A stretch of DNA of 64,000 bases from an uncultured bacterium (GCA_903882905.1 CAIRYW010000019.1:1406-65405); one strand, 5' to 3'; counted from the first letter of the stretch, positions 3,106 through 27,665 are shown. The notes: generated by a model not told the origin, from the sequence alone. Numbers and translations: made by a program.

Positions 3106-3396
3106 AACCCAGCACCTTTTTATGCACTATGTGTATGTAATACAAAGCATTATTGATAAAAGTTTATATTTTGGCATTACTAATGATCTAAGCCGTCGCC
3201 TGTTAGAGCATAATGATAAGAAAAATTTTTCCACGAGTTATAAAGGTCCATGGAGGTATGTGTACATTGAAGGATATTTAAGTAGGAAAGATGCTGCTTT
3301 GAGAGAAAAAATTTTTAAGCATTACGGTAATGCACGGACTTATGTTAAACGTCGATTGAAAAATAGTTTAAGTGCATAAGAAGGTGCTGGGAAAAG
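3106..3396 (+). mobile_element. GIY-YIG ORF flanked by perfect 11-bp inverted repeats CCCAGCACCTT / AAGGTGCTGGG (copy A of the CCCAGCAC IR family)
   Basis: IR arms at 3108-3118 and 3381-3391 bracket the 3122-3379 ORF exactly; lies in the pilM-pilN intergenic region. Confidence 0.55.
3122..3379 (+). CDS. GIY-YIG nuclease domain protein (small, 85 aa)
   Basis: YVYVIQS...YFGITNDLSRRLLEHN GIY-YIG motif. Confidence 0.8.
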   Translation: MHYVYVIQSIIDKSLYFGITNDLSRRLLEHNDKKNFSTSYKGPWRYVYIEGYLSRKDAALREKIFKHYGNARTYVKRRLKNSLSA

Positions 3397-3462
3397 ATAT
3401 TAACACCATTCTCACTTTAGGCATTCGCATATTTTTCTAATAAGCGCTAAAATATAAGTAAG

Positions 3463-4185
3463 ATGGAAACAAAGTTTCAAAATACATTTATACCAAAATC
3501 AGCTCTTGATACTCCAAGTATTACTCCTAATAGACAAGCGAACTTTTTGACTTTTGTTTCAATGATTATTTTTCTTTTGAGTTGTGTTTTGGCGGGTGGT
3601 GTATTTCTTTGGGGACAGTATCTTGCAGGTCAGGTGAGTTCACTAAATCAAAGTCTAGAAATAAATAAAAATGCTTTTGAACCAGGCACGATTGAACAAT
3701 ATTCTAGATTAAATAGTCGATTCGATAGTGCAAGAGGTCTTCTATCAAGTCATGTCGCAGCTTCTGCATTCTTTGATTTGCTCAACAAAGATACTTTGAA
3801 AACAATTCAATTTTCAGATTTGAAGTATTCACAAGACGGAAGCGGCCTTATTTCTATCAAAATGTCTGGTAAAGCAAAGTCATATAACTCAGTTGCTTAT
3901 CAAGCCAAAATTTTTTCAAACGAAGTAGCTTTCAAGAACGCAGTATTTTCAAATCTAGATCTTGATCAGTCTGGAAATGTGATTTTTGAATTTGATACAC
4001 AAGTTAATCCAAGTCTCGTAACCTATCAAAATAATATTGCAGCCTATAAAAATCTTTCAAATAATGTACCTCAGACTTTAAGTATTCCAGATCAAAATTC
4101 AGTTTCAAGCAGTAGTAGCGTAGGAGGTTTATCTTTTCCACCAGTAACGTCTACAAGTTCAAATGTTAAATCTATAAAAAAATAA
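3463..4185 (+). CDS. pilN: PilN-like pilus assembly protein (single N-terminal TM)
   Basis: Position after pilM, TM helix then periplasmic domain, Ser-rich tail. Confidence 0.6.
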   Translation: METKFQNTFIPKSALDTPSITPNRQANFLTFVSMIIFLLSCVLAGGVFLWGQYLAGQVSSLNQSLEINKNAFEPGTIEQYSRLNSRFDSARGLLSSHVAASAFFDLLNKDTLKTIQFSDLKYSQDGSGLISIKMSGKAKSYNSVAYQAKIFSNEVAFKNAVFSNLDLDQSGNVIFEFDTQVNPSLVTYQNNIAAYKNLSNNVPQTLSIPDQNSVSSSSSVGGLSFPPVTSTSSNVKSIKK

Positions 4186-4743
4186 ATGAAAGCAACAATT
4201 TTTCCAATATTATTAATAGCCGGTGCAATAGGACTTTTTGTCTTAGTAACAAATCCTCAGTATCAAGCGGCCAAAGATGTACAGACTCAAGTAGGTAGTC
4301 TAAGTGAAGCTTTGGGTAAGTCCGAGCAAATTCTTGCAAAAAGATCCGAATTACAAATACAATATAATAATTTTTCTTCCAAAGATATTACCTCGATTGA
4401 CAAACTTCTTCCTGACAATGTCGATAACGTCCAATTGGTACTTGATATGAATGGAATCGCAAGAAATCATGGTATGGTTCTTAGAAATATAAAAATTCAG
4501 GATCAGGGCGGTTCTGGAAACGCTAGTGCGCAAGGAACTCAAGCTTTAGGTCCAAATAATAGTCCAGTTGGCTCTTTGTCGCTCTCTTTTGATGTAACAG
4601 GAGATTACCAAAGCTTCACAGGTTTTCTAAAGGATTTGGAACAAAGTCTTAGGATCGTTGATGTTACTGGAATTAGTTTTAAATCGACAGATAAGGGTAT
4701 CTACGATTATGTAGTAAATATAAAAACCTATTGGTTAAAATAA
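4186..4743 (+). CDS. pilO: PilO-like pilus assembly protein
   Basis: N-terminal TM plus coiled-coil; directly follows pilN. Confidence 0.6.
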   Translation: MKATIFPILLIAGAIGLFVLVTNPQYQAAKDVQTQVGSLSEALGKSEQILAKRSELQIQYNNFSSKDITSIDKLLPDNVDNVQLVLDMNGIARNHGMVLRNIKIQDQGGSGNASAQGTQALGPNNSPVGSLSLSFDVTGDYQSFTGFLKDLEQSLRIVDVTGISFKSTDKGIYDYVVNIKTYWLK

Positions 4744-4746
4744 AAT

Positions 4747-5157
4747 ATGAAAGATTTATACGAAAAATTTAAATTACCAATCATTATCATAGCCCTCTTG
4801 GGTTTGGCTTTTGTTTTTTACAACATGTTTTTTAAAACTACAGCCGACTCCTCTGCACTTGTTAGTAATCCTGTTTCAGGTAACTCTGTTTCTGCAGATT
4901 TTTTGCCACTCCTACTTAAAATTCAGGATATCAAATTTGATCAAGGTTTTTTTGCAAATAGTACATACACTTCACTTAAAGATTTTGGTCAAACAATAAT
5001 TACTGAAGATAAACAAAGGAATGATCCATTTTCTCCTGTCTCTGGAGTAAATGTTTCTTCTTCTACTGTCGAAGGTTTAGGATTTACTGTGCAAACTGTT
5101 ACAGGAACATCAACTACTTCTTCTTCAAATTCTACAGCAACAGTTAAGACTAAATAA
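4747..5157 (+). CDS. Membrane-anchored pilus assembly accessory protein (PilP-like candidate)
   Basis: N-terminal TM, Ser/Thr-rich tail, sits between pilO and pilB. Confidence 0.4.
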   Translation: MKDLYEKFKLPIIIIALLGLAFVFYNMFFKTTADSSALVSNPVSGNSVSADFLPLLLKIQDIKFDQGFFANSTYTSLKDFGQTIITEDKQRNDPFSPVSGVNVSSSTVEGLGFTVQTVTGTSTTSSSNSTATVKTK

Positions 5158-5160
5158 AAT

Positions 5161-6882
5161 ATGGATTTAATTACGATTCTTTCAAAAAAAGGAGTACTTT
5201 CTTCTGGAGATGCTGATAGAGCAAGATCTGAATCAAAATCCCCAGAGGATATCGAGGAGATTTTGAAATCATATGGTATCAGCAAAACTGATATTCTTTC
5301 TGCAAAAGGAGAAGAGATGAACATTCCTACAAAAGAGATTGAAAATCCAAATATACCGATGGAGACGCTTAAGTATATTCCAGAGGATTCTGCTAATTAC
5401 TATCAAGTTATTCCACTCGGTTTAAATAAGGGTGCCCTTGAAGTTGGGATTGTTGATCCGGAAAATATAGAGGCTAGAGATGCTATAAGCTTTATTGCTT
5501 CAAAAAATAACGTTCCTTATAAAATATTTTTAATTTCTAAAGAAGATTTTGATAAAGGAATACTTGCTTACAAAGGACTTTCTGGAGAAGTGACCAGAGC
5601 TCTTTCTGAACTGGAAGAAGACCTTACCGACGAAGAGAAGGAAATGATCAGTCTTAAAGATGAAAATATAAACAGAAAGATCAATTCTGTGAATATTATC
5701 GAGGATGCGCCGGTAAAAAAAATAGTTGCGACGATTTTACGATACGCTATTGAAGGTGAGGCTTCTGATGTCCACATAGAACCAATGGTTGATAAGGTCA
5801 GAGTACGTTTTAGACTCGATGGAGCATTGCATACATCACTTATTTTGCCTATAAAAGTATTAAATACTGTAGTAGCGAGAATAAAAATTCTTTCGGATAT
5901 GAAACTTGATGAAAAAAGAAAACCACAAGATGGTCGTTTTAGTGCACGTATAGATGGCAGAAAAATTGATTTTCGTGTTTCAACTTTCCCAACTTACTAT
6001 GGAGAAAAAGTGGTTATGAGAATTCTTGACCAAGCTAAGGGGGTTAAACCCCTTGATGATCTGGATATTTCAGAGAGGGATTTAAAAATGATTAAAGAGG
6101 CTATACACAAACCATACGGATTGATTTTAATTTCTGGTCCTACGGGTTCTGGAAAGACAACTACTCTATATTCTATGCTTGGTGAAGTTGATAAAGAATC
6201 AAACAATGTACTCTCACTTGAAGATCCTGTTGAATACAACGTAGAAGGAATGAGTCAATCACAAATCAGACCTGAGATCGATTATACTTTTGCTAACGGA
6301 CTTAGAACTACTCTGAGACAAGACCCAGATATTATTATGGTGGGAGAAATTAGAGATAAAGAAACTGCTGCTCTTGCGATTCAAGCAGCACTTACAGGAC
6401 ACCTTGTGTTCTCAACTATTCACACAAATGATGCAATCGGGGTAATACCAAGATTGGTAGATATGGGTGTTGATCCGTACCTTATTGCTCCAACCTTGAT
6501 TTTATCAATGGCCCAAAGATTAGTCGCAAAAATTGCTCCAGGAGGAGGAAAAGAAATGCCAATAGAAGGAAGTATTCAAGTCATGATAGATAAACAATTT
6601 GTAGATTTACCTGAAGAATTTAAGAGTTCAATTCCAAAAGGAAATACTGTAGTTGAGGCGATCCCTACGAGCGAGTTTCCAAAAGGTACTCACGGAAGAA
6701 TAGGTGTGTTTGAAGTCTTTAAGATGGATAGGGAATTAGAAAATATTATTCTCACAAATCCAATAGAGACGGAAATTTGGAAAGTTGTTAGAAAACAAGG
6801 AATGTTTACTATGAAAGAAAACGCTATTGTTAAAGCCATAAAGCATGAAATTCCTTTTGAAGAAATAAGTGGTCTTGCTTAA
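5161..6882 (+). CDS. pilB: Type IV pilus assembly ATPase PilB (GspE family)
   Basis: Walker A ISGPTGSGKTTTLYSML, GspE N-domain, Asp/His boxes. Confidence 0.9.
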   Translation: MDLITILSKKGVLSSGDADRARSESKSPEDIEEILKSYGISKTDILSAKGEEMNIPTKEIENPNIPMETLKYIPEDSANYYQVIPLGLNKGALEVGIVDPENIEARDAISFIASKNNVPYKIFLISKEDFDKGILAYKGLSGEVTRALSELEEDLTDEEKEMISLKDENINRKINSVNIIEDAPVKKIVATILRYAIEGEASDVHIEPMVDKVRVRFRLDGALHTSLILPIKVLNTVVARIKILSDMKLDEKRKPQDGRFSARIDGRKIDFRVSTFPTYYGEKVVMRILDQAKGVKPLDDLDISERDLKMIKEAIHKPYGLILISGPTGSGKTTTLYSMLGEVDKESNNVLSLEDPVEYNVEGMSQSQIRPEIDYTFANGLRTTLRQDPDIIMVGEIRDKETAALAIQAALTGHLVFSTIHTNDAIGVIPRLVDMGVDPYLIAPTLILSMAQRLVAKIAPGGGKEMPIEGSIQVMIDKQFVDLPEEFKSSIPKGNTVVEAIPTSEFPKGTHGRIGVFEVFKMDRELENIILTNPIETEIWKVVRKQGMFTMKENAIVKAIKHEIPFEEISGLA

Positions 6883-6950
6883 AAAATGTTACAATAATGC
6901 TAAAGATTACTGGTTAGGAATTTAAAAAGTAAATTTTAAATTAAAAAAAC

Positions 6951-7343
6951 ATGGAAGAGGATAAAAACAAAAAAAAATTCAGTGTAGTATTGGTTGACGA
7001 CGACAAATTCCTTTTGAATATGTATGCGATGAAATTTACGAAAGAAGGTTATGGTATTACCGCTTTTCAATCTTCAGAAGAAGCATTAGAAAAATTTAGA
7101 CTAGGACTTAGTCCAGACGTAGTTCTTTTGGATGTTGTAATGCCTGGTATGGATGGACTTTCTTTGTTAAAAATATTACGTGATGAAAAACTTATACTAA
7201 ACTCAGCTGTTGTCATACTTTCAAATCAAGGAGCTCAAAGCGATATAGATAATGCAAAGGCCTTAAAAATTGATGGATATATTGTGAAAGCAACAACTAT
7301 TCCATCAGAAGTTTTGAGAGAAGTCTCTAGAATTGTCGAATAA
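6951..7343 (+). CDS. Single-domain response regulator (CheY-like receiver)
   Basis: VVLVDDD...DVVLLDVVMPGMDG phospho-acceptor region; embedded between pilB and pilT. Confidence 0.8.
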   Translation: MEEDKNKKKFSVVLVDDDKFLLNMYAMKFTKEGYGITAFQSSEEALEKFRLGLSPDVVLLDVVMPGMDGLSLLKILRDEKLILNSAVVILSNQGAQSDIDNAKALKIDGYIVKATTIPSEVLREVSRIVE

Positions 7344-7369
7344 AAAAAAGCAAATAATTTATAAAAAAT

Positions 7370-8431
7370 ATGGATTACGACAAAGAAATCAAAGAATTAC
7401 TCGAAACTGTCATAAGAGAGGGAGCGTCCGATTTACATATTTCAGAAAAAAGACACCCAACTATTAGGGTTTCAGGTAATTTAATTCCGCTTGTGAAAAA
7501 AGAAGCATTTTCAACACAAGATACCAGAGGAATACTTCGAAAATTGGTTAAACCAGAACTTGAAGATGCTTTTGAAAAAAATAAAGAAATAGATTTTTCA
7601 TATGAATTTGAAGGAAAAGCACGTTTTAGAGGAAATGCTTTTTTCCAACAAGGGCATATTTCAATTGCCCTACGATTAATTCCTAAAATAATTCAATCCC
7701 TTGAAGAATTAAAACTTCCAGCAATTTTGGGTGATTTTGCAAAGAAGAAGCAGGGATTCTTTTTGGTTGTTGGTCCCGTTGGGCAAGGAAAGACTACAAC
7801 TCTTGCCTCGATGGTTGAATTAATAAACCAAGAAAGAGCCGAACACATTGTGACAATTGAAGATCCTATCGAATATGCTTATGATCAAAAAAAATCAATC
7901 ATCGATCAGCGCGAAGTAAGAATTGATACAAAAGATTTTCACTCTGCTCTTATTTCAACTCTCAGAGAAGATATGAATGTGATCATGGTAGGAGAGATGA
8001 GAGACCCTGAGACAATGTCAGCTGCTGTAACAGCGGCAGAAACAGGTCACTTGGTATTTTCTACACTACATACAAATAATGCCGCTCAGACTATTGATAG
8101 AATTATTGACTCATTTCCTCCAGGACAGCAGGAACAAATTAGAATTCAACTTGCGGGATCTCTCATTGGAGTATTTTCACAAAGACTTATTCCTAGAATT
8201 TCAGGTGGAAGAATTCCTGCTTATGAATTAATGATTGCGAATGATGCAGTAGCAAACTTGATTCGTGAAAAAAGAGTTCATGAAATTGATACTGTAATTG
8301 AGACAAGCTCAGAGCAGGGAATGATTGATATGAATAGATGTTTGGCTGATTTGGTGCGTGCTGGGGAAATCACAATCGAAAATGCTTATAAGTTTGCATT
8401 TAAACCAAAGTCGCTTGAGAAGATGTTGTAG
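7370..8431 (+). CDS. pilT: Twitching motility / pilus retraction ATPase PilT
   Basis: Walker A VVGPVGQGKTTTLASMV, AIRNLIRE-like motif. Confidence 0.9.
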   Translation: MDYDKEIKELLETVIREGASDLHISEKRHPTIRVSGNLIPLVKKEAFSTQDTRGILRKLVKPELEDAFEKNKEIDFSYEFEGKARFRGNAFFQQGHISIALRLIPKIIQSLEELKLPAILGDFAKKKQGFFLVVGPVGQGKTTTLASMVELINQERAEHIVTIEDPIEYAYDQKKSIIDQREVRIDTKDFHSALISTLREDMNVIMVGEMRDPETMSAAVTAAETGHLVFSTLHTNNAAQTIDRIIDSFPPGQQEQIRIQLAGSLIGVFSQRLIPRISGGRIPAYELMIANDAVANLIREKRVHEIDTVIETSSEQGMIDMNRCLADLVRAGEITIENAYKFAFKPKSLEKML

Positions 8432-8464
8432 AAATTAAGGAGCAAAGCGACTATAATTTCAAAA

Positions 8465-8590
8465 CCCAGTACTAACTTTTCGGAACAATTTAAAAAAAAT
8501 GAGAATTAATAAATTACATAACATATTGAAAATAAAAATCAGTCAGACGACTGATTTTTGTGGTAAATTATCAGAAAAGTTAGTGCTGGG
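8465..8590 (+). repeat. CCCAGCAC-core inverted-repeat element, copy B (arms cccagtactaacttttc / gaaaagttagtgctggg, one mismatch)
   Basis: 17-bp arms separated by ~92 bp in the pilT-pilC spacer; the interior contains an ATGAG..TTAAT..AAATATT stretch similar to copies D/E and a small hairpin aatcagtc/gactgatt. Confidence 0.55.
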
Positions 8591-8630
8591 TGGCGATTTT
8601 AATACTCGCTTCACTCGTTAAAAATCAGCC

Positions 8631-9830: not shown

Positions 9831-9852
9831 GGAGAAAAAACTTAGAGGCTTA

Positions 9853-9907
9853 AAAACCTGCGAGGCTAAGCCTCAAGGATTTTAAGAGGCTTAGCCTCGC
9901 AGGTTTT
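9853..9907 (+). repeat. Perfect 22-bp inverted repeat AAAACCTGCGAGGCTAAGCCTC / GAGGCTTAGCCTCGCAGGTTTT (large hairpin) downstream of pilC
   Basis: Arms 9853-9874 and 9886-9907, 11-nt loop; likely terminator or REP-like structure. Confidence 0.6.
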
Positions 9908-9921
9908 CACTACAAAATTTG

Positions 9922-9961
9922 CCCAGCACCTTCTTTTGCTGCAGCAAAAGAAGGTGCTGGG
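9922..9961 (+). repeat. Perfect 40-nt palindrome CCCAGCACCTTCTTTTGCTG|CAGCAAAAGAAGGTGCTGGG (copy C of the CCCAGCAC family, no spacer)
   Basis: Self-complementary around a CTGCAG centre. Confidence 0.6.
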
Positions 9962-10127
9962 TTTTCCACACCCTATTTTTTTTAAAAAGTATTTAATGTA
10001 TAATTACAGGACAATTAAAAACAAATTCGCTCGGGTCGAATCGAGCAGAAATTAATTTAAAAGTTATTAGCGTGCCCTCTCAAGTTTTTTGAAGAAAAAT
10101 TTGTTAGGGTTATAAATTACTAAAAAA

Positions 10128-10496: not shown

Positions 10497-10524
10497 AAGA
10501 AGATCTAAGACTCACTACATAAGT

Positions 10525-10563
10525 AAAAAAACAGAATTCCTTAATTGGAGTTCTGTTTTTTTT
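10525..10563 (+). terminator. Rho-independent terminator after pilin 1
   Basis: acagaattcc..ggagttctgt stem followed by 8 T. Confidence 0.65.
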
Positions 10564-10566
10564 GAG

Positions 10567-10596: not shown

Positions 10597-10616
10597 CTAT
10601 ATATAAATATATTAAA

Positions 10617-11120: not shown

Positions 11121-11486
11121 ATGAAAAAAGGTTTTACACTTATCGAACTTTTAGTTGTTATTGCAATAATTGGTATTTTGTCTTCTGTGGTTCTTACGTC
11201 TTTGAATGGTGCGAGAGACAAAGCAAAAATTTCTGCTTTCAAGTCTGAACTTTCTTCTCTTCAGTCTGGGTTGGTAAGTATTTGTGATTCTAGAGATATT
11301 GATGTTGCAACTGATACTCCAGCAATTGGTGCCCATAGCGCAGCTGATATTGCGAGTTTTGCACAAAGTTGTGCCGATGACACCGACCCGGTTTATACAT
11401 TTAGTGTTACATTCACTCCAACAAATGGTGCTGCCTGCACTGATGGGACTATCACTGATTCTACTACTACGTACACTGGTTGCTAA
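11121..11486 (+). CDS. Type IV pilin paralog
   Basis: MKKG|FTLIELLVVIAIIG, C-terminal Cys pair. Confidence 0.85.
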   Translation: MKKGFTLIELLVVIAIIGILSSVVLTSLNGARDKAKISAFKSELSSLQSGLVSICDSRDIDVATDTPAIGAHSAADIASFAQSCADDTDPVYTFSVTFTPTNGAACTDGTITDSTTTYTGC

Positions 11487-11536: not shown

Positions 11537-12019
11537 ATGAAAAAAGGTTTTACCCAGCACCAAGTTTTCACAAAACAAGAGTTAATCAAGCGTAAGTTTT
11601 CTATTAGAAAACTTAGTGCTGGGTTTACACTTATCGAACTTTTAGTTGTTATTGCAATAATTGGTATTTTGTCTTCTGTGGTTCTTACGTCTCTAAGTGG
11701 GGCACAAGATAAAGCTAGAAAAGCTGCGGTGATTTCAAGCTTGCAGAGTATTATGCACGAACTTACAATGTGTGATATTGATGGTGGTTTTGGTAGAACG
11801 GAAAACCCTATAGTAGCTGGCGATTATATATGTGTCACTCCAAGTGGAACTGTTAATACTCCTATGACAAATCATACGGCTACTTGGCCAAACATTACAG
11901 GTATTGGTGGTACATATGGGAGTGCTAGGAATGCATTTTCAACTGGAACCTATTCTTATATAGCGACAGTTAATGGTGCAACCATAACTTGTACTTACTC
12001 AACCCAAGTTTGTAGTTAA
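11537..12019 (+). CDS. Type IV pilin paralog with 25-aa insertion in the leader peptide (MKKGFT-[QHQVFTKQELIKRKFSIRKLSAGFT]-LIEL)
   Basis: Start ATG 11537, internal to ORF-track start 11507. The mature part is a paralog of the 10617 pilin; the insertion corresponds to IR element copy G. Confidence 0.75.
   Translation: MKKGFTQHQVFTKQELIKRKFSIRKLSAGFTLIELLVVIAIIGILSSVVLTSLSGAQDKARKAAVISSLQSIMHELTMCDIDGGFGRTENPIVAGDYICVTPSGTVNTPMTNHTATWPNITGIGGTYGSARNAFSTGTYSYIATVNGATITCTYSTQVCS
11546..11628 (+). mobile_element. CCCAGCAC-core IR element copy G (68-bp insert with 7-bp target duplication GGTTT(T)AC) inside the pilin leader-coding sequence
   Basis: Arms acccagcaccaagttt / aaacttagtgctgggt (one mismatch). 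Flanking GGTTTTAC / GGTTTAC duplication reconstitutes the G-F-T codons; total 75 bp, in frame. Confidence 0.6.
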
Positions 12020-12509: not shown

Positions 12510-12534
12510 TTTTTCATTATGTTATAATTTACAT

Positions 12535-13356
12535 ATGTTTTATTATCTTTCAGCAGTAATTTTTGTTGTCGGTACGATTATTGGCAGTTTTCTTAATGTC
12601 GTCGCTCTTAGAATCAATACTGGTAAGGGCTTAATGGGTAGGTCTTTTTGCATGTCTTGTGGAAAGACAATAAAATCATATGATCTTTTTCCTATCTTGA
12701 GTTTTCTATCTCTGGGTGGAAAATCCCGTTGTTGCAAGACAAAAATTTCTTGGCAGTATCCTTTGGTTGAATTTATCACAGGACTAATTTTTCTTTCAGT
12801 TTTTTTAAAGTTTTATAGTCTTGCATACGTTCCAGTTTTGGTTCCAACTTTTTGGTATTTAGCTTTTTGTATTTTGATTGTTATCACGATTTATGATGTA
12901 AGACATCAGATTATTCCAGATTTTCTTTCATATACTTTTGCATTTTTATCTGTTTTATATTTTGTTGGAGATAAAAGTCTTACAAGTATTTTTTCTTATC
13001 CAGAAATTTTAAATTTTTTGGCTGGCCCAATTATTTTTGCTGTGTTCTCTTTGGTTTGGTTTGTTTCAAAAGGGAGATGGATTGGTTTTGGAGATGGAAA
13101 ACTAGCCCTTGGAATGGGGTTTGCATTAGGATTTTCAGAAGCTCTTTCGGCAATTGCTTTTGCCTTTTGGATCGGGGCAATCTGGAGTATTTTTATACTA
13201 CTTTTTCAAAAACTTGGTATTGCAAAAAGTAAATTTAATTTTAAGAGCGCTGTGCCGTTTGCACCATTTATGATTGCGGGATTTCTTTTGGCTTTTATTT
13301 TGAGCGCTGATGTTTTTAGTTTAAATATGTTAATTTTTGGCCCAGCACCTTTTTAA
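12535..13356 (+). CDS. pilD: Prepilin peptidase PilD (A24 family, bifunctional)
   Basis: N-terminal Cys tetrad CMSCGK...CCKTK, multiple TM, catalytic Asp region. Confidence 0.85.
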   Translation: MFYYLSAVIFVVGTIIGSFLNVVALRINTGKGLMGRSFCMSCGKTIKSYDLFPILSFLSLGGKSRCCKTKISWQYPLVEFITGLIFLSVFLKFYSLAYVPVLVPTFWYLAFCILIVITIYDVRHQIIPDFLSYTFAFLSVLYFVGDKSLTSIFSYPEILNFLAGPIIFAVFSLVWFVSKGRWIGFGDGKLALGMGFALGFSEALSAIAFAFWIGAIWSIFILLFQKLGIAKSKFNFKSAVPFAPFMIAGFLLAFILSADVFSLNMLIFGPAPF

Positions 13357-13440
13357 TTTGTTAAAATCATGAGTTTAATTAAAATAATAAAAAAATATTT
13401 TTCAAAAAAAAATCTTAATGAAGTACAAAAAGGTGCTGGG
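13341..13440 (+). repeat. CCCAGCAC-core IR element copy D (14-bp arms CCCAGCACCTTTTT / AAAAAGGTGCTGGG) enclosing the start codon and leader of pseudopilin 13369
   Basis: Left arm overlaps the pilD stop; right arm encodes K-G-A-G of the cleavage site. Confidence 0.6.
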
Positions 13441-14076
13441 TTCACCCTCGTCGAAATGATGGTGGTCGTGGCTATTGTAATTGTCATGACTTCTATTTTG
13501 CTTTTGAAACAATCAAAGTTTTCAAGTGATATTTTGGTTACAAACGCTGCTTACGAAGTAGCCCTCTCAATCCGAGAAGCTCAAGTTTATGGTATTAGTT
13601 CCAAACAAACTTCCACAAATTTAAATGTTGGATATGGAATATATTTAGACAATTCATCCACAAATTCTTTTACTATTTATTCTGATGGCGGCTATTCTAG
13701 TAGTAATACATATAATTACACTTTTAATTACGGAGATACTGGCGAATCTTATGTTTCAATAGAAAATCCTCAACTTACACAAGGTCAGACAATAAAAAAA
13801 ATTTGCGTTGCTTCGACAATGAATAATATTAGTTGTTCTGATACTGATTCAACGCTCACAAAACTTAATATAGGTTTTATAAAGCCAAACCCTGAAGCTT
13901 TAATATATAAAAATGGTACTACTGGTACATCAAATAGGCTAAATGAAGCTTTTATAGTCGTTGCATCTGTTCTTGGAGATAAATGTAGAGTCGTCCGAAT
14001 AACTTCTATTGGACAAATATCAGTTGATACTCCTCGTCCTCTAGGTGACGAATGTACCGCTTTACCAACATTATGA
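13369..14076 (+). CDS. Minor pseudopilin with long 24-aa leader (..KKYFSKKNLNEVQKGAG|FTLVEM)
   Basis: Prepilin cleavage motif G|FTLVE after an extended leader; hydrophobic helix. Confidence 0.75.
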   Translation: MSLIKIIKKYFSKKNLNEVQKGAGFTLVEMMVVVAIVIVMTSILLLKQSKFSSDILVTNAAYEVALSIREAQVYGISSKQTSTNLNVGYGIYLDNSSTNSFTIYSDGGYSSSNTYNYTFNYGDTGESYVSIENPQLTQGQTIKKICVASTMNNISCSDTDSTLTKLNIGFIKPNPEALIYKNGTTGTSNRLNEAFIVVASVLGDKCRVVRITSIGQISVDTPRPLGDECTALPTL

Positions 14077-14639: not shown

Positions 14640-14643
14640 TATG

Positions 14644-14745
14644 AACCCAGCACCTTTATCTTTTCAAAATCATGAACTTCATAAATAAAACAAAAAAATA
14701 TTTTTTAAAGAAAAATTTATACAAAGCACATAAAGGTGCTGGGTT
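14644..14745 (+). repeat. CCCAGCAC-core IR element copy E (16-bp arms AACCCAGCACCTTTAT / ATAAAGGTGCTGGGTT) enclosing the start and leader of pseudopilin 14672
   Basis: Interior is homologous to copy D (aaaatcatga..ttaat..aaaaaaatatttt..); the right arm encodes KGAG. Confidence 0.6.
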
Positions 14746-15292
14746 CACATTAATTGAAACTATGGTTGCAATTACCATCCTTCTTGTAACTATTGTTGGA
14801 CCGATGGAGATCGCTTCGAAAGCTTTATTTTCTGCTTTTTATGCTAGAGATCAAATAACTGCATATTATTTAGCACAAGAGGGTATAGAGTCTTTAAGAA
14901 ACTTCAGAGATGTTTATTATTTAAATGGCTTTACTGGTTGGCCTTCTTTTGTGACAGATTGTTCATATGACGGGATAAGTAAGTATGGGTGTAAAGTTGG
15001 TGCTTCTAGTGGTGCGAATCCTGTTTATAGTGTATTAAAATGTACTGCTAAATGTGATACACCTAGTGATGCCCTATATTACAATAGTGGGAATGGTATA
15101 TATTCTTATATTACTGATTCTGGTAATACCAAATCAAAATATACTAGATTAGTGAAAGTTACCCCAGATGCAACAAATCCTAATGATGCCGCGCTCGTTG
15201 AATCGACAGTTTATTGGACAGGAAGTTATCTATCGAGCGGTACAAAATCTTTTACAATAAAAGAAATGCTTTATAACTGGCAGACGAAATAA
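14672..15292 (+). CDS. Minor pseudopilin with long leader (..KKYFLKKNLYKAHKGAG|FTLIETMV)
   Basis: Prepilin motif; the leader is similar to that of the 13369 gene. Confidence 0.75.
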   Translation: MNFINKTKKYFLKKNLYKAHKGAGFTLIETMVAITILLVTIVGPMEIASKALFSAFYARDQITAYYLAQEGIESLRNFRDVYYLNGFTGWPSFVTDCSYDGISKYGCKVGASSGANPVYSVLKCTAKCDTPSDALYYNSGNGIYSYITDSGNTKSKYTRLVKVTPDATNPNDAALVESTVYWTGSYLSSGTKSFTIKEMLYNWQTK

Positions 15293-15849: not shown

Positions 15850-17889
<2,040 letters not shown>

Positions 17890-20456: not shown

Positions 20457-20458
20457 TG

Positions 20459-20531
20459 TGTCGGAGGTGGGGATCGAACCCACGACCCCAGGCTTATGAG
20501 TCCTGTGCTCTACCGACTGAGCTACCCCGAC
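20459..20531 (-). tRNA. tRNA-Met or tRNA-Ile2 (anticodon CAT), elongator type
   Basis: Reverse complement GTCGGGGTAGCTCAGTCGGTAGAGCACAGGACTCATAAGCCTGGGGTCGTGGGTTCGATCCCCACCTCCGACA folds as a canonical cloverleaf; G1-C72 pair, so not initiator-like; no encoded CCA. Confidence 0.85.
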
Positions 20532-20629
20532 AAATTCTCAATTTGTTATTTATACTACAAACCGGTATTTAAATAAAGATTTGACTTGAAATAGCTTTAA
20601 AATAAGAGTAAGATACTTGAACTTATATA

Positions 20630-20698
20630 GCGGGATGGAGGAGTAGTACCTCGTCAGGCTCATAACCTGAAGACATCGGTGCAAGTCCGGTTCCCGCA
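20630..20698 (+). tRNA. Non-canonical tRNA-like gene with CAT anticodon (69 nt; D-loop lacks GG, T-loop TGCAAGT)
   Basis: Acceptor GCGGGA/TCCCGC, D-stem GAGG/CCTC, perfect anticodon stem TCAGG/CCTGA with loop CTCATAA; atypical D and T loops. Confidence 0.45.
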
Positions 20699-20784
20699 AC
20701 ACGTAATACAATTTAAGCTTTCTTTTCTATTTTTTTTCTAAATATAGGTTAGCATAATTTCCTGTCACGGTATATAATTATATT

Positions 20785-21474
20785 GTGCCAATATATAAGG
20801 AAGTAAACAAAAAATTTTTCAAAAAATGGAATCCTGAGATGGCTTACGTTTTGGGTTTTTTTGCTGCTGATGGATATATAACGATAAATAAAAGAGGTGG
20901 TCATTTTTGGTCGATTCAAATTACAGATGAAGATTTACTTAATAATATAAGAAGAGTTATTAGATCAAATCATAAAATCAGTTCAAGAAAAAAAATCGGT
21001 AATAAGAAAATTAGTTATAGATTACAAATAGGAAGTATGGAAATGTGTGAGGATTTGTCCCAATTAGGATTTAGCGAAAGAAAAACGAAAAATCTTTCTA
21101 TCCCAAATGTTCCTGAAAAGTATTTCAAAGATTTTGTTAGGGGATATTTTGATGGAGATGGGAATGTTTGGGTTGGTTACACGCATAAAAAAAGTAAAAA
21201 TCCGCTTAATGTTGTTAGAACAGTCTTTACTTCTTGTGCTTTAGAGTTTCTTAGCACTTTAGGAAAAAGACTTGAAAAATTTTCAATATACAAAGGTGTA
21301 GTTAGTAAAGGAAAGGGAAATTACTACAGACTTACGTATAGTGTTCACGGTTCTTTAAAATTATATGATTTTATGTATAATGGTCTAAAATCAGATTTAT
21401 TTCTTAATAGAAAGAAAATGGTTTTTGATAGGTTTATCGAAAGTAGAAGAGTTGCGGCTGTAGCTCAACGGTAG
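20785..21474 (+). CDS. LAGLIDADG homing endonuclease (double-motif, free-standing)
   Basis: LGFFAADGYI and RGYFDGDGNV motifs; the last 21 nt overlap exon 1 of tRNA-Asp. Confidence 0.8.
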   Translation: MPIYKEVNKKFFKKWNPEMAYVLGFFAADGYITINKRGGHFWSIQITDEDLLNNIRRVIRSNHKISSRKKIGNKKISYRLQIGSMEMCEDLSQLGFSERKTKNLSIPNVPEKYFKDFVRGYFDGDGNVWVGYTHKKSKNPLNVVRTVFTSCALEFLSTLGKRLEKFSIYKGVVSKGKGNYYRLTYSVHGSLKLYDFMYNGLKSDLFLNRKKMVFDRFIESRRVAAVAQR

Positions 21475-21742: not shown

Positions 21743-21922
21743 CAAGAAAAAAACGCCTAAAGGCGTTTTTTTTTGTGGCTGAGAAAGGTGTGGGACACCT
21801 TTCGCAAGGGCGATGATGGGCGCAACGATGTTTTGTCAGCAGACAAAACAGTGAGCTGGGATAGCAAAATTTCCGAGCGACGGCGAAGAAATATTTGTGA
21901 TCATCACCCTTCAGCCGCGCAA
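21743..21922 (+). mobile_element. tRNA-associated mini-element E1: terminator + ~150-bp element ending AAATATTTGTGATC, then a 24-bp direct repeat of the tRNA-Asp T-loop-to-3' end with a second terminator
   Basis: gatcatcacccttcagccgcgcaa at 21722-21745 repeated at 21899-21922; interior motifs gttttgtcagcagacaaaac and agcgacggc shared with E2/E3. Confidence 0.55.
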
Positions 21923-22029
21923 TAAAAATCCCCGAAAGGGGATTTTTTCGTGGTCAATAAAAGCATAAGTAACGAAATAGATAAACCTACGTCTTTTGTG
22001 TTGTCTAAATCTGGTATAATTTTCTACAT

Positions 22030-23067: not shown

Positions 23068-23082
23068 TTTAAATAAAAATAT

Positions 23083-23502
23083 ATGGAAGAAAAAGAATTT
23101 AGAGTTGGTGTCGGCGTGATGATTTTTAAAGAAAATAAGATTCTACTTGGCAAGAGAAAGGGAAGTCATGGGTCAGGAGAATTTTCTTTCCCAGGAGGAA
23201 AAATGGAATACAAAGAATCTTTCAAAGATTGTGTTTTACGAGAAATTAAGGAAGAGTGTGGAGTAGAAATCGATAATATTGAATTTTTGATTGTCGCAAA
23301 TATAAAACAATATTTACCAAAACATCATGTCCTTGTGGGCTTTAGAGCGACATGGAAATCGAGTGAGCCTGCAGTATTGGAGCCAGAAAAATGTGAAGGC
23401 TGGGGTTGGTACGACTTAGATAAACTACCTGAACCACTTTTTGAAGCATCAAAAATAATGATTGATGCTTATAAAGATAAAAGATCTTTCCTAGATAGCT
23501 AA
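23083..23502 (+). CDS. NUDIX hydrolase
   Basis: Nudix box GGKMEYKESFKDCVLREIKEECG. Confidence 0.8.
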   Translation: MEEKEFRVGVGVMIFKENKILLGKRKGSHGSGEFSFPGGKMEYKESFKDCVLREIKEECGVEIDNIEFLIVANIKQYLPKHHVLVGFRATWKSSEPAVLEPEKCEGWGWYDLDKLPEPLFEASKIMIDAYKDKRSFLDS

Positions 23503-24011
23503 ATAATCTTTCCTTTTAATATTTTCATTACGTCTTTTCTAACTGCCGGGATTTTTTTGTTTGCATCTATAAAAATTGCATCTTTAAACTTTGGCGCTGA
23601 ATAGCGTAAGCAATTTTTTTTGATATCTCTTATTGTTCTACATTTTTTTCTACTTCTAGCTCTTTTAATACTATTTTCTAATTTAGTTTTTAAAAAAAGA
23701 TGAATATAATTTATTTTTCCTATTTTTATTTTTAATTCCTTTATTAATACTACTGTCCATGAACTACTTATTACAACATTTATATTTTTTGCAATATAGG
23801 AATTAATCATGTCAATCATCACACGTCTTGTGAGATTGTGATAAGAAATATTTTTCTGAAATGAATTAATAAAATATTTTATTATATCCATATCCAAAAA
23901 AACTGTTTTATTTGGAAGTTTTTTCTTTAGGTAACTAGCAAGAGTTGTTTTACCGGCACCTATAGGCCCATTTATTAGTAAAACAAAAGGTTTTACTTTA
24001 TGAGTTTTCAT
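23499..24011 (-). CDS. P-loop NTPase / small kinase-like protein (AAA_33-like)
   Basis: Walker A LLINGPIGAGKTTLAS, DMD Walker B-like; 170 aa. Confidence 0.6.
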   Translation of the reverse strand: MKTHKVKPFVLLINGPIGAGKTTLASYLKKKLPNKTVFLDMDIIKYFINSFQKNISYHNLTRRVMIDMINSYIAKNINVVISSSWTVVLIKELKIKIGKINYIHLFLKTKLENSIKRARSRKKCRTIRDIKKNCLRYSAPKFKDAIFIDANKKIPAVRKDVMKILKGKII

Positions 24012-24084
24012 ATCTTCATTATATCACACTTTATAATAAAGAGCAATTAGCTAATAATAAGATAGTCTGTAGAATTATAAAACT

Positions 24085-24780
24085 ATGAGCAAGACTTTTT
24101 GGGAAAAAGAATATAAAGATCCAAGACATTTAGCGATGTCAGATGAGCCTGCAGAAGACTTAATTCATTTTGCTAAGTGGACAGTTAGGAATGCAGAATG
24201 GAATCCATTTCCAAAAGATGGCTTTACACTTGATATTGGTTGTGGAAATGGAAGGAATATTATAAATCTTTGTGAAGAATACAATATGCATGGATTAGGT
24301 ATAGATATTTCGTCTACTGCAATTGAACAAGCTACAAACAAGACAAAAACAAAAAATTTAAAAATTAATTACGTAATAATGGAGGTAAAGGATCGGCTAC
24401 CAATCGAAGATGCAACTTGTGACGTCGTTTTAGATATGATGACTTCACATTTTTTGAATGAAGCAGATAGAAAATCTTTGGCGTTAGAGATTGCAAGAGT
24501 TACAAAGCCCTATGGTTGGGTAATGTTTAAAACTTTTATTATGGATGGAGATAGTCATGCGAAAAGATTGATTAAAGAATTTCCAGCCGGAGAAGAGGGA
24601 AGTTATATTCATCCAAAAATAAAGGTTGCTGAACATGTTTTTACTGAACAAGAAATTTATGATTTATTTTCTCCGAATTTTAAAATATTTAAGATGTTGA
24701 AAAGTTATAAGCATGTTCTTGATGGCAAACCACACAAGAGGAGAACAGTTTCTGTTTATCTAGAAAGAAAGAGAGATTAA
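24085..24780 (+). CDS. Class I SAM-dependent methyltransferase
   Basis: Motif I LDIGCGNGRN, acidic post-I residue, motif II VVLDM. Confidence 0.7.
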   Translation: MSKTFWEKEYKDPRHLAMSDEPAEDLIHFAKWTVRNAEWNPFPKDGFTLDIGCGNGRNIINLCEEYNMHGLGIDISSTAIEQATNKTKTKNLKINYVIMEVKDRLPIEDATCDVVLDMMTSHFLNEADRKSLALEIARVTKPYGWVMFKTFIMDGDSHAKRLIKEFPAGEEGSYIHPKIKVAEHVFTEQEIYDLFSPNFKIFKMLKSYKHVLDGKPHKRRTVSVYLERKRD

Positions 24781-24796
24781 TAATTAATAAAAAAAT

Positions 24797-25228
24797 ATGC
24801 AATCAAAAGATTTAACAAAAGAAGCCCCAAGAAGTCCTTATGAATTAATTAATGGTTTTACTATCTTAGCAAGGACAATAGATAAGTGCAGAGCTGTTAT
24901 TGCTGAAACAAATGGAGAATACCACTTTGATTGTCCTTTGGATAAAGCTTTATTTGGTTTTAAAGGAATCGATGCAAACGAGTTTAAGGATTTTGTTGCA
25001 TCAGGTAGTAGTGATGAAGAAATCGGAGAGTGGGTTTTTGAACATGGAACTCAAAAAACAGTTGATGAAATAAAAACTTGGAGTAAACATTTTCATTCTG
25101 ATTTCTCTTACTCAACAGATCCAAATAAAAGCACTTGGTTTAAAGGTGAATGCGAAAGACTTGGACTTGATCCAATGAAAACAACCCTTTTTGATTATCT
25201 AGAAGTAGACGATAAGGCAAGTTTTTAA
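24797..25228 (+). CDS. Conserved hypothetical protein (DUF-type, 143 aa)
   Basis: Intact ORF after the methyltransferase; no clear catalytic motif. Confidence 0.45.
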   Translation: MQSKDLTKEAPRSPYELINGFTILARTIDKCRAVIAETNGEYHFDCPLDKALFGFKGIDANEFKDFVASGSSDEEIGEWVFEHGTQKTVDEIKTWSKHFHSDFSYSTDPNKSTWFKGECERLGLDPMKTTLFDYLEVDDKASF

Positions 25229-25285
25229 AATACTTTTTTTAAATTGAAAATACTGTCCGATTATAATAGTATGTGCTGACAACTT

Positions 25286-25552
25286 GCCGTTGTAGCTCAG
25301 TTGGTAGAGCACGTCATTGGTTAGTTAAATAGCCCATCATTTTGGAAACGAAATGATGAATCCCGAATTACGGTTAAAGTCCACGCAAGTGGGTAAGACC
25401 GTGGCGAGAAATCGCCCGAACGACTGACAAGGGACGCTAAACCGAAAAGGTATGTGTAAGATACAGTCTAATCCTTTTATAAGTCATTGCGGCGAAATAA
25501 AGGTAGGAAATGAATGACGAGGTCTCCGGTTCAATCCCGGACAACGGCTCCA
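25286..25552 (+). tRNA. tRNA-Thr(GGT) interrupted by a group I-like intron (exon 1 25286-25321, exon 2 25513-25552, encoded CCA)
   Basis: Acceptor GCCGTTG/CAACGGC, anticodon stem CGTCA/TGACG, loop TTGGT|AA, variable AGGTC, T-arm TCCGG-TTCAATC-CCGGA. Confidence 0.7.
25322..25512 (+). ncRNA. Group I-like intron (191 nt) in the tRNA-Thr(GGT) anticodon loop after position 36
   Basis: Insertion after U, terminal G 25512, P7-like GACUG / CAGUC pairing elements; no ORF. Confidence 0.5.
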
Positions 25553-25555
25553 TTT

Positions 25556-25587
25556 AAAAACCACCAGCAAATTTGCTGGTGGTTTTT
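25556..25587 (+). terminator. Bidirectional rho-independent terminator
   Basis: aaaaaccaccagcaaatttgctggtggttttt. Confidence 0.7.
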
Positions 25588-25613
25588 AATTTCCATAGAA
25601 TCAGATATCACAT

Positions 25614-25838
25614 TTAGGCAGATATTTTTGAAGATGAAACGCACGCTTTGCAAGTTTTTTTGTGAATTACAACTTCAACGATTGCAGCAACACCGACAAG
25701 AATGTAGACAATATTTGCTAAAGTACTTCCTGCTCCAAAAGCCATTGCGACTAAGTCCCATCCTCCAATTCCTACCAAAAGCCAGTTAAGGCCTCCAATA
25801 ATAAGAAGGATGAAAGAAATCATGTGAATAGTTTTCAT
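25614..25838 (-). CDS. DUF378 family small membrane protein
   Basis: GGLNWLLVGI...STLANIVYILVG signature, two TM helices. Confidence 0.65.
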   Translation of the reverse strand: MKTIHMISFILLIIGGLNWLLVGIGGWDLVAMAFGAGSTLANIVYILVGVAAIVEVVIHKKTCKACVSSSKISA

Positions 25839-26033
25839 AGAGTTTTGAAATTAAATTGTTAATTTCGACCTCGAGTCTGACACTTAAATTATAACACTTT
25901 ATTTAGAGTTATAGACACCTAAGAGAATAATGTTTGAGCCTTTGCAACAATTAATAAGGTTTGATGACTTTCATCTTGATTTAGAGACCATATTGAAATG
26001 TAATGGTACATTATCAAATTCGTCATATAGGTT

Positions 26034-26477
26034 GTGAGGAACATACCAAAAAAATATTTAATTGTGATTGGGGTTTTTGTTGTTGTTGTCTTGGTGTCAC
26101 TTTTTATTATATTTAATCCATTCAATCATCTCGATAGCGCCACACTTGCCGCAAGAAGAGGAGCTACCGAACTCTTATCAGTCACCATCATGACTGATTT
26201 AGTTAGTTACTATAATGTTGAGAGTAATTTTTTGGACTTCTCAAAAAGTCTTGCAGTAAAACAAAAAATTGCGGGGGAGATTTTAGATCTAAAAACAAAA
26301 TACGGAGGAGACTATGATTATAAAATTTTTGAAATATCAGAAAGGGGATTGTCTATTAAGACAGTCGAGAAAACTACGGGGACTTATTATTGTATCGATA
26401 ACGCAACCTATGTTCCTGTTGAAATTAAAAGCGATCAATTTACTGTAAATTCAGATTGTACTGGAAAAAGATTGTGA
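26034..26477 (+). CDS. Hypothetical membrane-anchored protein
   Basis: N-terminal TM, no known domain. Confidence 0.45.
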   Translation: MRNIPKKYLIVIGVFVVVVLVSLFIIFNPFNHLDSATLAARRGATELLSVTIMTDLVSYYNVESNFLDFSKSLAVKQKIAGEILDLKTKYGGDYDYKIFEISERGLSIKTVEKTTGTYYCIDNATYVPVEIKSDQFTVNSDCTGKRL

Positions 26478-26532
26478 TTTTTTTAAATTAAGTAATTGAT
26501 TTATTCGGTGCTATGTAATATCTTTTCTTAGT

Positions 26533-26608
26533 GCCGATGTAGCTCAGTTGGTAGAGCAGGCGCTTCGTAAGCGTCAGGTCGACAGTTCGATTCTGTCCAT
26601 CGGCTCCA
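26533..26608 (+). tRNA. tRNA-Thr(CGT)
   Basis: GCCGATGTAGCTCAGTTGGTAGAGCAGGCGCTTCGTAAGCGTCAGGTCGACAGTTCGATTCTGTCCATCGGCTCCA, canonical cloverleaf, encoded CCA. Confidence 0.9.
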
Positions 26609-26676
26609 TAAATATAGAATATCTATATTTAGAGAATCGAAAAGCGCAGATATATTTTTCTGGTAATATTGTATTA

Positions 26677-27549
26677 ATGAAAGAAGAAAAAGAGAAAAGA
26701 ATATTAGAAATAGAACAACTTATGACAGGCTCGGATTTTTGGGCTGATAAAGAAAAAGCTCAACTTTTGATTAAAGAATTACAGGAGTTAAAGACTACTG
26801 TTGAGGGCGGAAGTCCCTTTGATAGCGGAGATGCTATTTTGACGATTTTTTCTGGAGCAGGGGGAATTGATTCTGAAGATTTTGCCTCAATGCTTCTTTC
26901 GATGTACCAAAAATATGTTGCAAAGAGAGGATGGGGAACGTACTTGGTTCATGAAAATAAAAATGATCATGGTGGAATTCGCAATACTACTTTTGAAATA
27001 AAAGGAAAGAACGCGTATGGAATTTTAAAAAATGAATCAGGTGTTCATCGTCTTGTGCGACTTTCTCCGTTTAATTCAAAAAGTTTGAGACATACCTCAT
27101 TTGCAATGGTTGAAATAATTCCAAAGTTTGAAAAAAAAATGAATATAGAGGTACCAGAATCTGAACTTAAAATTGAATTTTCAAAATCTAGTGGTCCAGG
27201 AGGACAAAATGTAAACAAAAGAGAAACAGCTGTGAGGATTGTTCATGTTCCAACAAAAATTTCGGTGCATGTAGATTCTCAGAGGAGTCAGGGACAAAAT
27301 AAAGAAAAAGCACTTGAGATTTTAAAAGGCAAACTCTACACGATTTTTGAGGCAGAAAGAATTGCTCGAGAAAAGGGAATGCAAATATCTAAGACCACAG
27401 ATGTGGAGTGGGGAAATCAGATTCGCTCTTATGTTTTGCATCCATATAAGATGGTTAAGGACCATAGAACGAATGTTGAGACCGCAAATACAGAAGCTGT
27501 TTTAAATGGAGATATCGAAAAATTCTTAGAAGCCGAAAAATTTCTGTGA
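26677..27549 (+). CDS. prfB: Peptide chain release factor 2 (short N-terminal domain, no +1 frameshift site)
   Basis: SPF tripeptide (RLSPFNSK), GGQ (SGPGGQNVNK). The ORF-track start 26548 runs through the tRNA-Thr gene and is spurious; first ATG is 26677. Confidence 0.85.
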   Translation: MKEEKEKRILEIEQLMTGSDFWADKEKAQLLIKELQELKTTVEGGSPFDSGDAILTIFSGAGGIDSEDFASMLLSMYQKYVAKRGWGTYLVHENKNDHGGIRNTTFEIKGKNAYGILKNESGVHRLVRLSPFNSKSLRHTSFAMVEIIPKFEKKMNIEVPESELKIEFSKSSGPGGQNVNKRETAVRIVHVPTKISVHVDSQRSQGQNKEKALEILKGKLYTIFEAERIAREKGMQISKTTDVEWGNQIRSYVLHPYKMVKDHRTNVETANTEAVLNGDIEKFLEAEKFL

Positions 27550-27561
27550 AGAAATTTTGAG

Positions 27562-27665
27562 GCCCAGCACATAGTTTTTCTGATTTCGTGCCATGTTGGT
27601 CTAATTTTGATATAATTAATACACATTGAGTTTTAATTTTCTACCCAGAAAAACTATGTGCTGGG
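27562..27665 (+). repeat. CCCAGCAC-core IR element copy F (21-bp arms GCCCAGCACATAGTTTTTCTG / CAGAAAAACTATGTGCTGGGC)
   Basis: Perfect arms separated by 62 bp between prfB and ftsE. Confidence 0.6.

Follow-up and report, generated by a model that had tools for sequence, protein, structure and literature searches.

Seven loci in a 64-kb stretch of DNA from an uncultured bacterium (positions 1-64000, hereafter the window) carry copies, here called A to G, of one family of inverted-repeat elements. Copy A encloses an open reading frame (ORF) for a small GIY-YIG nuclease, a gene that is bracketed by the same stem in other genomes, and copies B to G are hairpins without an ORF. The family relationship rests on a stem with an invariant core and a covarying upper part; related loci are polymorphic for insertions accompanied by a duplication of TTTA, and insertions in pilin genes keep the reading frame. 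Copies persist solely at harmless places, namely the variable regions and leader of rRNA genes, intercistronic spacers and prepilin leaders. [quoted passage not shown]

Conserved core and covarying stem

The core word CCCAGCAC/GTGCTGGG occurs 14 times in the window (exact matches, both strands) against an expectation of 0.49, and none of 100 shuffled sequences reached this number. A chance origin of the pairs, already considered unlikely in a preliminary description of this DNA, is thereby ruled out. Thirteen of the matches, together with one variant arm, form seven convergent pairs, which correspond to the seven inverted-repeat loci proposed in that description; the unpaired match lies at 8358-8365, within pilT, and the final 36 kb of the window contain no copy. 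Several details had to be amended. The core opens 13 of the arms, but not all of them as had been claimed, because the left arm of B reads CCCAGTAC, with a U.G position within the core. The arms of A measure 21 bp instead of 11 bp, and those of E, G and F, although placed at the right sites, are slightly longer or shifted (Table 1). The type IV pilus locus contains six copies (A, B, C, G, D and E) rather than five. The interiors of B, D and E had been described as shared: those of D and E are clearly homologous, but that of B instead resembles a longer element of a related genome. Folding of the copies, a check suggested in the same description, predicted strongly stable, long closed stems for the six ORF-less copies (40-126 bp, arms 14-21 bp; z = -4.8 to -8.6), and the whole unit of copy A gave z = -4.2.

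A word of this kind might be a DNA uptake sequence or another genome-wide signal occurring as inverted pairs. The uptake sequences of Neisseria and Haemophilus are often found as inverted pairs at terminators, and the window encodes a type IV pilus apparatus, machinery of a sort that serves in DNA uptake. However, the copies are clustered and, with a single exception, paired, the last 36 kb being devoid of them; the two closest relatives lack the word, and in distant lineages it was seen just as the bracket of one gene family. We regard this interpretation as scarcely credible and rejected it.

The stem was analyzed in 18 elements (the seven of the window, seven ORF-bearing units and four hairpins of related loci). 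Pairs 2-8 are invariant, and two-sided changes are seen at 9 of the 17, such as pair 12, which occurs as U-A, C-G or G-C. In total, 96% of the stem cells are paired, a value matched in none of 500 shuffles, and no slid register comes close. These two-sided changes beside an invariant base support the selected stem structure that the preliminary description had offered as one possibility; its other possibility, a mobile hairpin-forming element, is supported by the TTTA duplication and by comparison with a paralogue and with related genomes, which revealed filled and empty sites (see below). Since the core is unchanged while the associated protein diverges to 52% identity, sequence-specific recognition is a better explanation for it than mere pairing.

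The GIY-YIG cassette and its relatives

Copy A lies in the spacer from pilM to the next pilus gene (the pilN position) and has the same orientation in two further assemblies, L001 and L002 (L001-L053 are loci or assemblies from other genomes that were compared with the window). The ATG and the stop codon of its nuclease gene are both located within the stem arms, a Shine-Dalgarno-like AGGAGG lies just outside the stem, and no promoter of its own was evident in the unit. The closest relatives with a solved structure are PDB 1zg2 (1e-13), followed by 1ywl and SLX1; 1zg2 and 1ywl are stand-alone UPF0213 proteins, a group that has been assigned to the Slx1 lineage (PMC1564403). Residues Y5, Y16, R26, H30 and E62 are invariant in the family and, judging from the GIY-YIG motif, are likely to be the catalytic positions. 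The score against TIGR01453 (17 bits) is far below the cut-off of 56. No Y1 HUH transposase domain of the RAYT or IS200/IS605-like kind was found, the stem-flanked gene belonging to PF01541.

A profile search returned thousands of GIY-YIG homologues, from which members of the clade of 84-87 aa were sampled (52-69% identity to the window protein). They occupy eight independent contexts, copy A included (Table 1). In each of these contexts, (A)CCCAGCAC...GTGCTGGG(T), usually CCCAGCACCTT...AAGGTGCTGGG, flanks the gene as a stem of 14-26 bp, and the gene runs in the direction of host transcription; the eight insertion sites have no visible flank in common. The units total about 284-335 bp including the ORF. 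An Rfam scan detected tRNAs alone in the window and rRNAs and tRNAs alone in the related loci, with no intron or other RNA family. The size of the units leaves no room for a ribozyme, and neither the window nor the rRNA-borne units matched a group I or II intron model, so that the units do not qualify as introns. The rRNA-borne relatives L025, L027 and L045 are stem-closed inserts in rRNA helices, as defined for intervening sequences (IVSs), whereas the copies of the window lie in mRNA.

Scans of viral contigs for the stem and for the protein yielded no unit of this type (type 1) and one match that is probably due to chance. This sole viral match to CCCAGCACCTT...AAGGTGCTGGG (L053 3811-3861, an IMG/VR contig) falls within a phage ORF and has an interior without self-complementarity; about 0.3 such matches are expected by a rough estimate.

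More distant GIY-YIG genes without the CCCAGCAC stem were found in L005 and at 42331-42573 (+) of the window. The latter is a second small ORF of 81 aa with 35% identity to the copy A protein, and its neighbours are a pseudouridine synthase gene and a DUF2914 gene. A second GIY-YIG clade (MYYIYVLISKKDKKFYTGF...SYLTG) has a distinct stem of its own, CCCTGTTAAAT/ATTTAACAGGG; besides its two units in Table 1, a decayed remnant of such a unit is present in L003 at about 1975-2090.

Table 1. Copies of the element in the window, ORF-bearing units of the same clade, and units of the second GIY-YIG type
Feature	Locus	Position	Strand	Context and structure
Copy A, ORF-bearing unit	Window	3108..3391	+	Spacer downstream of pilM; 21-bp closing stem 3108-3128 / 3371-3391, one G.U, around the GIY-YIG ORF
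GIY-YIG nuclease gene, 85 aa	Window	3122..3379	+	PF01541 (Pfam E = 1e-13), UPF0213/Slx1 lineage
Copy B, ORF-less 126-bp hairpin	Window	8465..8590	+	pilT-pilC spacer; arms CCCAGTACTAACTTTTC / GAAAAGTTAGTGCTGGG; z = -8.6
Copy C, perfect 40-bp palindrome, stem only	Window	9922..9961	.	After pilC
Copy G, 71-bp element 11553-11623	Window	11549..11627	+	In pilin gene 11537-12019; TTTA duplicates 11549-11552, 11624-11627
Copy D, 100-bp element	Window	13341..13440	+	Left arm in last codons of pilD; right arm abuts F+1 of pilin 13369-14076
Copy E, 98-bp element 14646-14743	Window	14642..14747	+	18-bp stem 14642-14659 / 14730-14747, extends into flanks TGAA/TTCA
Copy F, ORF-less hairpin	Window	27562..27666	+	prfB-ftsE spacer; perfect 21-bp arms 27562-27582 / 27646-27666; z = -7.6
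ORF-bearing unit	L025/L026; L027			16S rRNA gene interior, two different sites
ORF-bearing unit	L028/L029			16S 5' leader
ORF-bearing unit	L045-L047			23S rRNA gene interior
ORF-bearing unit	L030-L039			UDG to fusA
ORF-bearing unit	L040/L041			Upstream of rplJ
ORF-bearing unit	L042-L044			rplE to rpsH
Second-type GIY-YIG unit	L048	4108-4393		pilT-pilC spacer, left boundary common with window copy B
Second-type GIY-YIG unit	L051	4381-4666		pilT-pilC spacer, left boundary common with window copy B

Insertion sites and the prepilin leader

Copy G is a clean insertion. The adjacent paralogue at 11121, reading MKKGFTLIELLVV, serves as its empty reference, while the gene with G reads MKKGFT[QHQVFTKQELIKRKFSIRKLSAGFT]LIELLVV. 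At the DNA level, ATGAAAAAAGGTTTTA|CACTT of the paralogue corresponds to ...GGTTTTA[71 bp]TTTACACTT, an addition of 75 bp in frame with TTTA duplicated; the stem of G (11552-11570 / 11606-11624) has one C.A mismatch. A filled and an empty site were also found in a pair of orthologues, where L049 has AAAGGTTTCA|CATTG and L048 has AAAGGATTTA[38-bp hairpin]TTTACCCTG, the difference being the hairpin plus TTTA.

Comparison of orthologous sites with and without the element, as the preliminary description had proposed, revealed that B, C, D and F are each missing from one or more relatives: 1) the pilT-pilC spacer of L004 is about 30 bp long and has no B, 2) the C hairpin is absent in L048, L004 and L003, 3) in L003 and L004, the arms are lacking and the leaders of the D pilin orthologues are short, and 4) the prfB-ftsE spacer is 156 bp in the window but 55 bp at the syntenic L050. 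Relatives also carry elements of their own. Three hairpins of 40-41 bp, all with the exact core, are present in the syntenic locus of L051; one occupies the position of C and two lie in minor pilins at the G-F-T site (see below), where the orthologue of the E pilin carries a 41-bp in-frame hairpin. In L003, whose pilD is 86% identical to that of the window, three 134-bp sister elements occupy the G-F-T site of three consecutive pilins, in frame and amounting to 138 bp when the duplication is counted. At the D-type site of L048, a sister element is arranged as in D, and an intermediate form in L048, TCCAGCACTAACTTTGG..., links the L003 variant to B and G of the window. The arm of C (CCCAGCACCTTCTTTTGCTG) is nearly the reverse complement of the right arm of A, which suggests that the short copies are derived from the ORF-bearing form.

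In all, TTTA is duplicated at G, at the L048 copy, at two L051 copies and at the three L003 copies, and TTTA flanks are present in 9 copies; duplication was not seen at A, B and F, and C, D and E have partial matches alone. Because G follows TTAC, insertion 3' of TTAC in the manner of IS200/IS605 elements was considered. It was rejected, since no Y1 transposase was found, the ends pair with each other without separate subterminal hairpins, and a 4-bp TTTA duplication fits all the clean cases better.

Two further hairpins were noted near these copies. One is terminator-like (8534-8559, AAAAATCAGTCAGACGACTGATTTTT), lies inside B and could end pilT transcription. The other belongs to a second, unrelated family with the palindrome GAGGCT(T/A)AGCCTC; it lies at 9853-9908 with 22-bp arms, directly after pilC and just upstream of C, and the palindrome is also present in the pilin cluster of L003 (4447-4459, 4623-4635 and 5310-5322).

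Three copies of the window (G, D and E) sit in the leader codons of pilin genes. In the clean pilin insertions, with TTTA duplicated, the element lies exactly behind the G-F-T codons of the prepilin cleavage motif and the reading frame is kept. The read-through inserts measure 42, 45, 45, 75 and three times 138 bp, all multiples of three and free of stop codons; since splicing would not need these properties, RNA splicing of the inserts is unlikely. At D and E, the ancestral upstream leader has been lost, and an ATG internal to the element starts a leader of 24 aa ending in K-G-A-G|F, in which the right arm of D (GGT GCT GGG) encodes G-A-G. Copy E is placed after the ancestral ATGAA of pilin 14672-15292 and supplies the new ATG and leader. 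The string MLIFG|FTL was ruled out as an ancestral pilin start at D, as it is the C-terminus of pilD. Most of 120 homologues of pilin E have leaders of 5-15 residues; a subset has the signature GFTQH...(S/G)AG|FT, some of them with near-identical empty relatives, and this signature recurs in further metagenomic orthologues. An in-frame insert at the G|F-T motif would be removed together with the leader by the prepilin peptidase, leaving the mature pilin unchanged.

A third type of leader extension was observed in minor pilins (L048 9367-9520 and 10001-10130; L049 7440-7560). It encodes ...FYPTNFLPKSV..FLLDNKKVKILE.., contains the palindrome ACCGAAATCGGT, and occurs in two distinct pilins of L048, of whose two counterparts in L049 just one has it. 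Several families of inserts seem to accumulate in prepilin leaders.

As D, E and G enclose pilin start regions, the arms might be taken for those of invertons, in which a site-specific recombinase flips the enclosed segment and causes pilin phase variation. Pili are classic phase-variable structures, and a conserved core with copy-specific extensions is the look of invertible-promoter families. However, the GIY-YIG gene keeps one orientation among the 10 assemblies compared for one locus and the 3 that contain copy A, and follows the host transcript in each of the eight contexts; C and the hairpins of 38-41 bp contain nothing to invert, no recombinase gene is present in the window, and the inserts are translated through in frame. 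The inverton interpretation, highly improbable on these grounds, was rejected.

The hairpins could also be host regulatory RNA structures of the pilus operon, i.e. RNase III sites, terminators or attenuators enclosing the starts of minor-pilin genes, under selection but not mobile. All copies lie at gene boundaries on the sense strand of one long operon and are predicted to form highly stable stems; a T-rich tail follows C, and the terminator-like hairpin is located within B. Moreover, C differs from its orthologous L051 hairpin (5900-5939) by a compensatory swap of C-G to G-C, stem mismatches on the sense strand lean to G.U (7) over A.C (2), though not significantly (p = 0.18), and Correia elements in transcripts are known to be cut by RNase III (PMC10969869). 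Yet B, C, D and F are missing from close relatives having the same operon, in unrelated lineages the same core flanks the nuclease gene within ribosomal-protein operons and rRNA genes, and the inserts have TTTA duplications. A purely regulatory origin is unlikely on balance; exaptation of individual copies is compatible with a selfish family.

The window is AT-rich (GC about 34%) and the nearest relatives of its pilD are from 'Candidatus Paceibacterota' and similar metagenome-assembled genomes; its source is a genome of the Patescibacteria (candidate phyla radiation, CPR), a group of ultra-small bacteria. A metagenome scan using pilD returned no relative beyond one already known. The type IV pilus locus extends from pilM (1809) to the last pilin (15838). 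It begins with pilM, copy A, an ORF at the pilN position without a Pfam match, pilO, another unassigned ORF, pilB, a response regulator gene, pilT and copy B, and continues with pilC, copy C, three pilins, the pilin carrying G, one more pilin and pilD. Copy D extends from the end of pilD into the start of the pilin that follows; after this come one additional pilin, copy E at the start of the next one, a pilin-like gene and ligA. Copy F lies outside this locus, between prfB and ftsE. Upstream of the first major pilin gene and 3' of a conserved TATAAT, the block AATTCGCTCGGGTCGAATCGAGCAGAAATTAATT (10020-10060, hairpin 10028-10047) is invariant also in L003, L004 and L048 despite diverged flanks, and could be a regulatory hairpin of the 5' untranslated region. 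A free-standing LAGLIDADG_3 ORF is located at 20785-21474 (+), beside tRNA genes at 20459-20531 (-) and 20629-20699 (+), and L051 has one at the syntenic position (16417-17049). Almost all genes of the window are on the + strand and the cumulative GC skew climbs throughout, suggesting that the window is probably on one replichore with its genes co-oriented with replication.

Possible mobilization and comparison with known systems

In the explanation that we favour, the full form, represented by copy A, would be a sense-oriented unit residing inside transcription units that tolerate a looped-out insert, and B to G would be ORF-less derivatives, consisting of the stem alone or of the stem with a short interior, inserted at TTTA with a 4-bp duplication. 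The invariant core may be a cis site recognized in trans by the GIY-YIG protein, which would mobilize both the full and the gene-less forms, in the manner proposed for RAYT proteins and REPINs. A need for the transcript, or for single-stranded DNA, to fold shut could be what keeps the upper stem complementary. The closing stem would insulate the insert structurally in the transcript, may also sequester the start codon of the nuclease itself and, in rRNA, would permit looping out or removal by RNase III, as with IVSs.

Several points weigh against this explanation: i) GIY-YIG chemistry is not known to offer a covalent intermediate for strand transfer, ii) proteins of the copy A type (84-87 aa) consist of the catalytic domain alone, without a DNA-binding module, iii) no target duplication surrounds the ORF-bearing units (0 of 8) although the short hairpins have one, so that the two forms may insert by different routes, iv) no ORF-less copies were found beside the other sampled ORF units, v) L051 has three hairpins with the type-1 core, yet a type-2 GIY-YIG gene is the only one in the 17 kb examined, vi) a 4-bp target duplication is the product expected of a conventional transposase, which may be encoded beyond the 64 kb seen, and vii) as the bias of the stem mismatches is not significant, selection on RNA and on DNA is inseparable, and the constraint could act on RNA, single-stranded DNA or both.

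Some of these points would suit ordinary MITEs moved by a conventional transposase encoded elsewhere, the GIY-YIG gene being a passenger or an independent selfish gene that landed in one copy. Terminal inverted repeats, the TTTA duplication, small size and multiple copies are all as expected of MITEs, and the units without duplication and the L051 hairpins without a type-1 gene in the DNA examined can be accommodated. On the other hand, the stem and the GIY-YIG clade occur together in all eight contexts, with a core that stays constant as the protein diverges, and the second GIY-YIG clade has its own stem. Furthermore, no transposase, integrase or recombinase domain was detected in any ORF of the 64-kb window, and no transposase is called in the gene tables of the related loci. 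We consider such a passenger role improbable.

A further-reaching proposal, which we put forward tentatively and think somewhat doubtful, is that the stem-bounded GIY-YIG cassette with its gene-less hairpins constitutes a prokaryotic transposable element of a new class. Excision and insertion at TTTA would then be driven, without any DDE, HUH, serine or tyrosine enzyme, by a minimal structure-specific nuclease of the Slx1-like kind that recognizes the base of the CCCAGCAC stem in a folded hairpin or cruciform, and would be completed by the repair and ligation functions of the host. Such an element would survive in transcribed 'safe harbours' alone, i.e. rRNA variable loops, operon spacers and cleavable prepilin leaders.

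The architecture is MITE-like, given the terminal inverted repeats, the target duplication and the ORF-less copies beside one ORF-bearing copy, and it parallels the REPIN/RAYT arrangement; the earlier statement that the family is unlike MITEs and unlike REP elements was therefore too strong. Its unusual aspects are the associated protein and the insertion niches. Inverted repeats, size, copy number, duplication and filled/empty sites all agree with MITEs, but the partner with the same ends encodes a GIY-YIG nuclease and not a known transposase. As in REPIN/RAYT systems, a single nuclease-type gene is flanked by an inverted sequence that is also found as gene-less hairpins elsewhere, with a conserved base motif and covarying stems. 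In contrast to those systems, the protein has a GIY-YIG (Slx1-like) domain instead of a Y1 HUH transposase, the copies are few, TTTA is duplicated, and insertions occur in genes and rRNA and not in extragenic DNA alone. Compared with homing endonuclease genes, the GIY-YIG domain is present, but a DNA-binding module and a single conserved homing site are lacking. The element fails the defining tests of RAYT systems, classical homing endonuclease genes, introns and invertons.

The insertions in pilin genes are functionally analogous to the Rickettsia palindromic elements, in-frame palindromic mini-elements within genes whose extra peptide is tolerated (PMC10969869). In-frame palindromic inserts within ORFs comprise G, the L048 insert, two copies of L051 and three of L003. 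They differ in belonging to an unrelated lineage, in lying in a prepilin leader that is cleaved, and in having an ORF-bearing sister element. No transposase gene was detected for the present family in the DNA examined, and the Rickettsia elements are likewise not known to have one. Correia and NEMIS elements have terminal inverted repeats, a short target duplication and co-transcription with their neighbours, and the stems of Correia elements are RNase III substrates (PMC10969869). The present family shares the inverted repeats, the short duplication and the co-transcription with Correia-type MITEs, but has no known DDE partner; its shortest copies are bare palindromes of 38-41 bp and its ORF form encodes a nuclease domain alone. 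Like rRNA IVSs, some of which carry a small ORF, it includes inserts in variable rRNA helices closed by a stem of inverted ends; in contrast to them, the stem base is conserved in sequence across hosts, which RNase III alone does not explain, and the element also occurs in mRNAs.

GIY-YIG ORFs in rRNA insertions of CPR bacteria have already been published. A survey of CPR rRNA genes described them, 'outside the context of homing', in inserts that are not introns and whose scattered sites are poorly conserved (Tsurumaki et al. 2024, PMC11270868). Those inserts and the ORF-bearing relatives of copy A, which are located inside 16S and 23S genes at differing sites, are one and the same kind of object. 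The terms 'inverted repeat' and 'palindrom' do not appear in the text of that paper, 'stem' appears in an unrelated use alone, and neither ORF-less derivatives nor copies outside rRNA genes are described; the family of the window, in contrast, has a unit in a pilus operon and miniature copies in protein-coding leaders. We found no description in the literature of the conserved stem, the miniature derivatives or the insertion into prepilin leaders.

The GIY-YIG inserts of CPR rRNA genes thereby gain a defined cis element, with an invariant stem base and a covarying upper stem, and this stem-bounded element spreads beyond rRNA to operon spacers and yields gene-less copies that move. In practice, the hairpins can break assemblies, mislead the calling of pilin start codons and inflate apparent leader lengths. 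The leader codons of prepilins are an apparently undescribed niche for selfish DNA, in which a host peptidase would erase the insert from the product, and its use recurs across several genomes and element families. Should the nuclease mobilize the hairpins, a MITE-like system would for the first time be linked to a nuclease of the Slx1 type.

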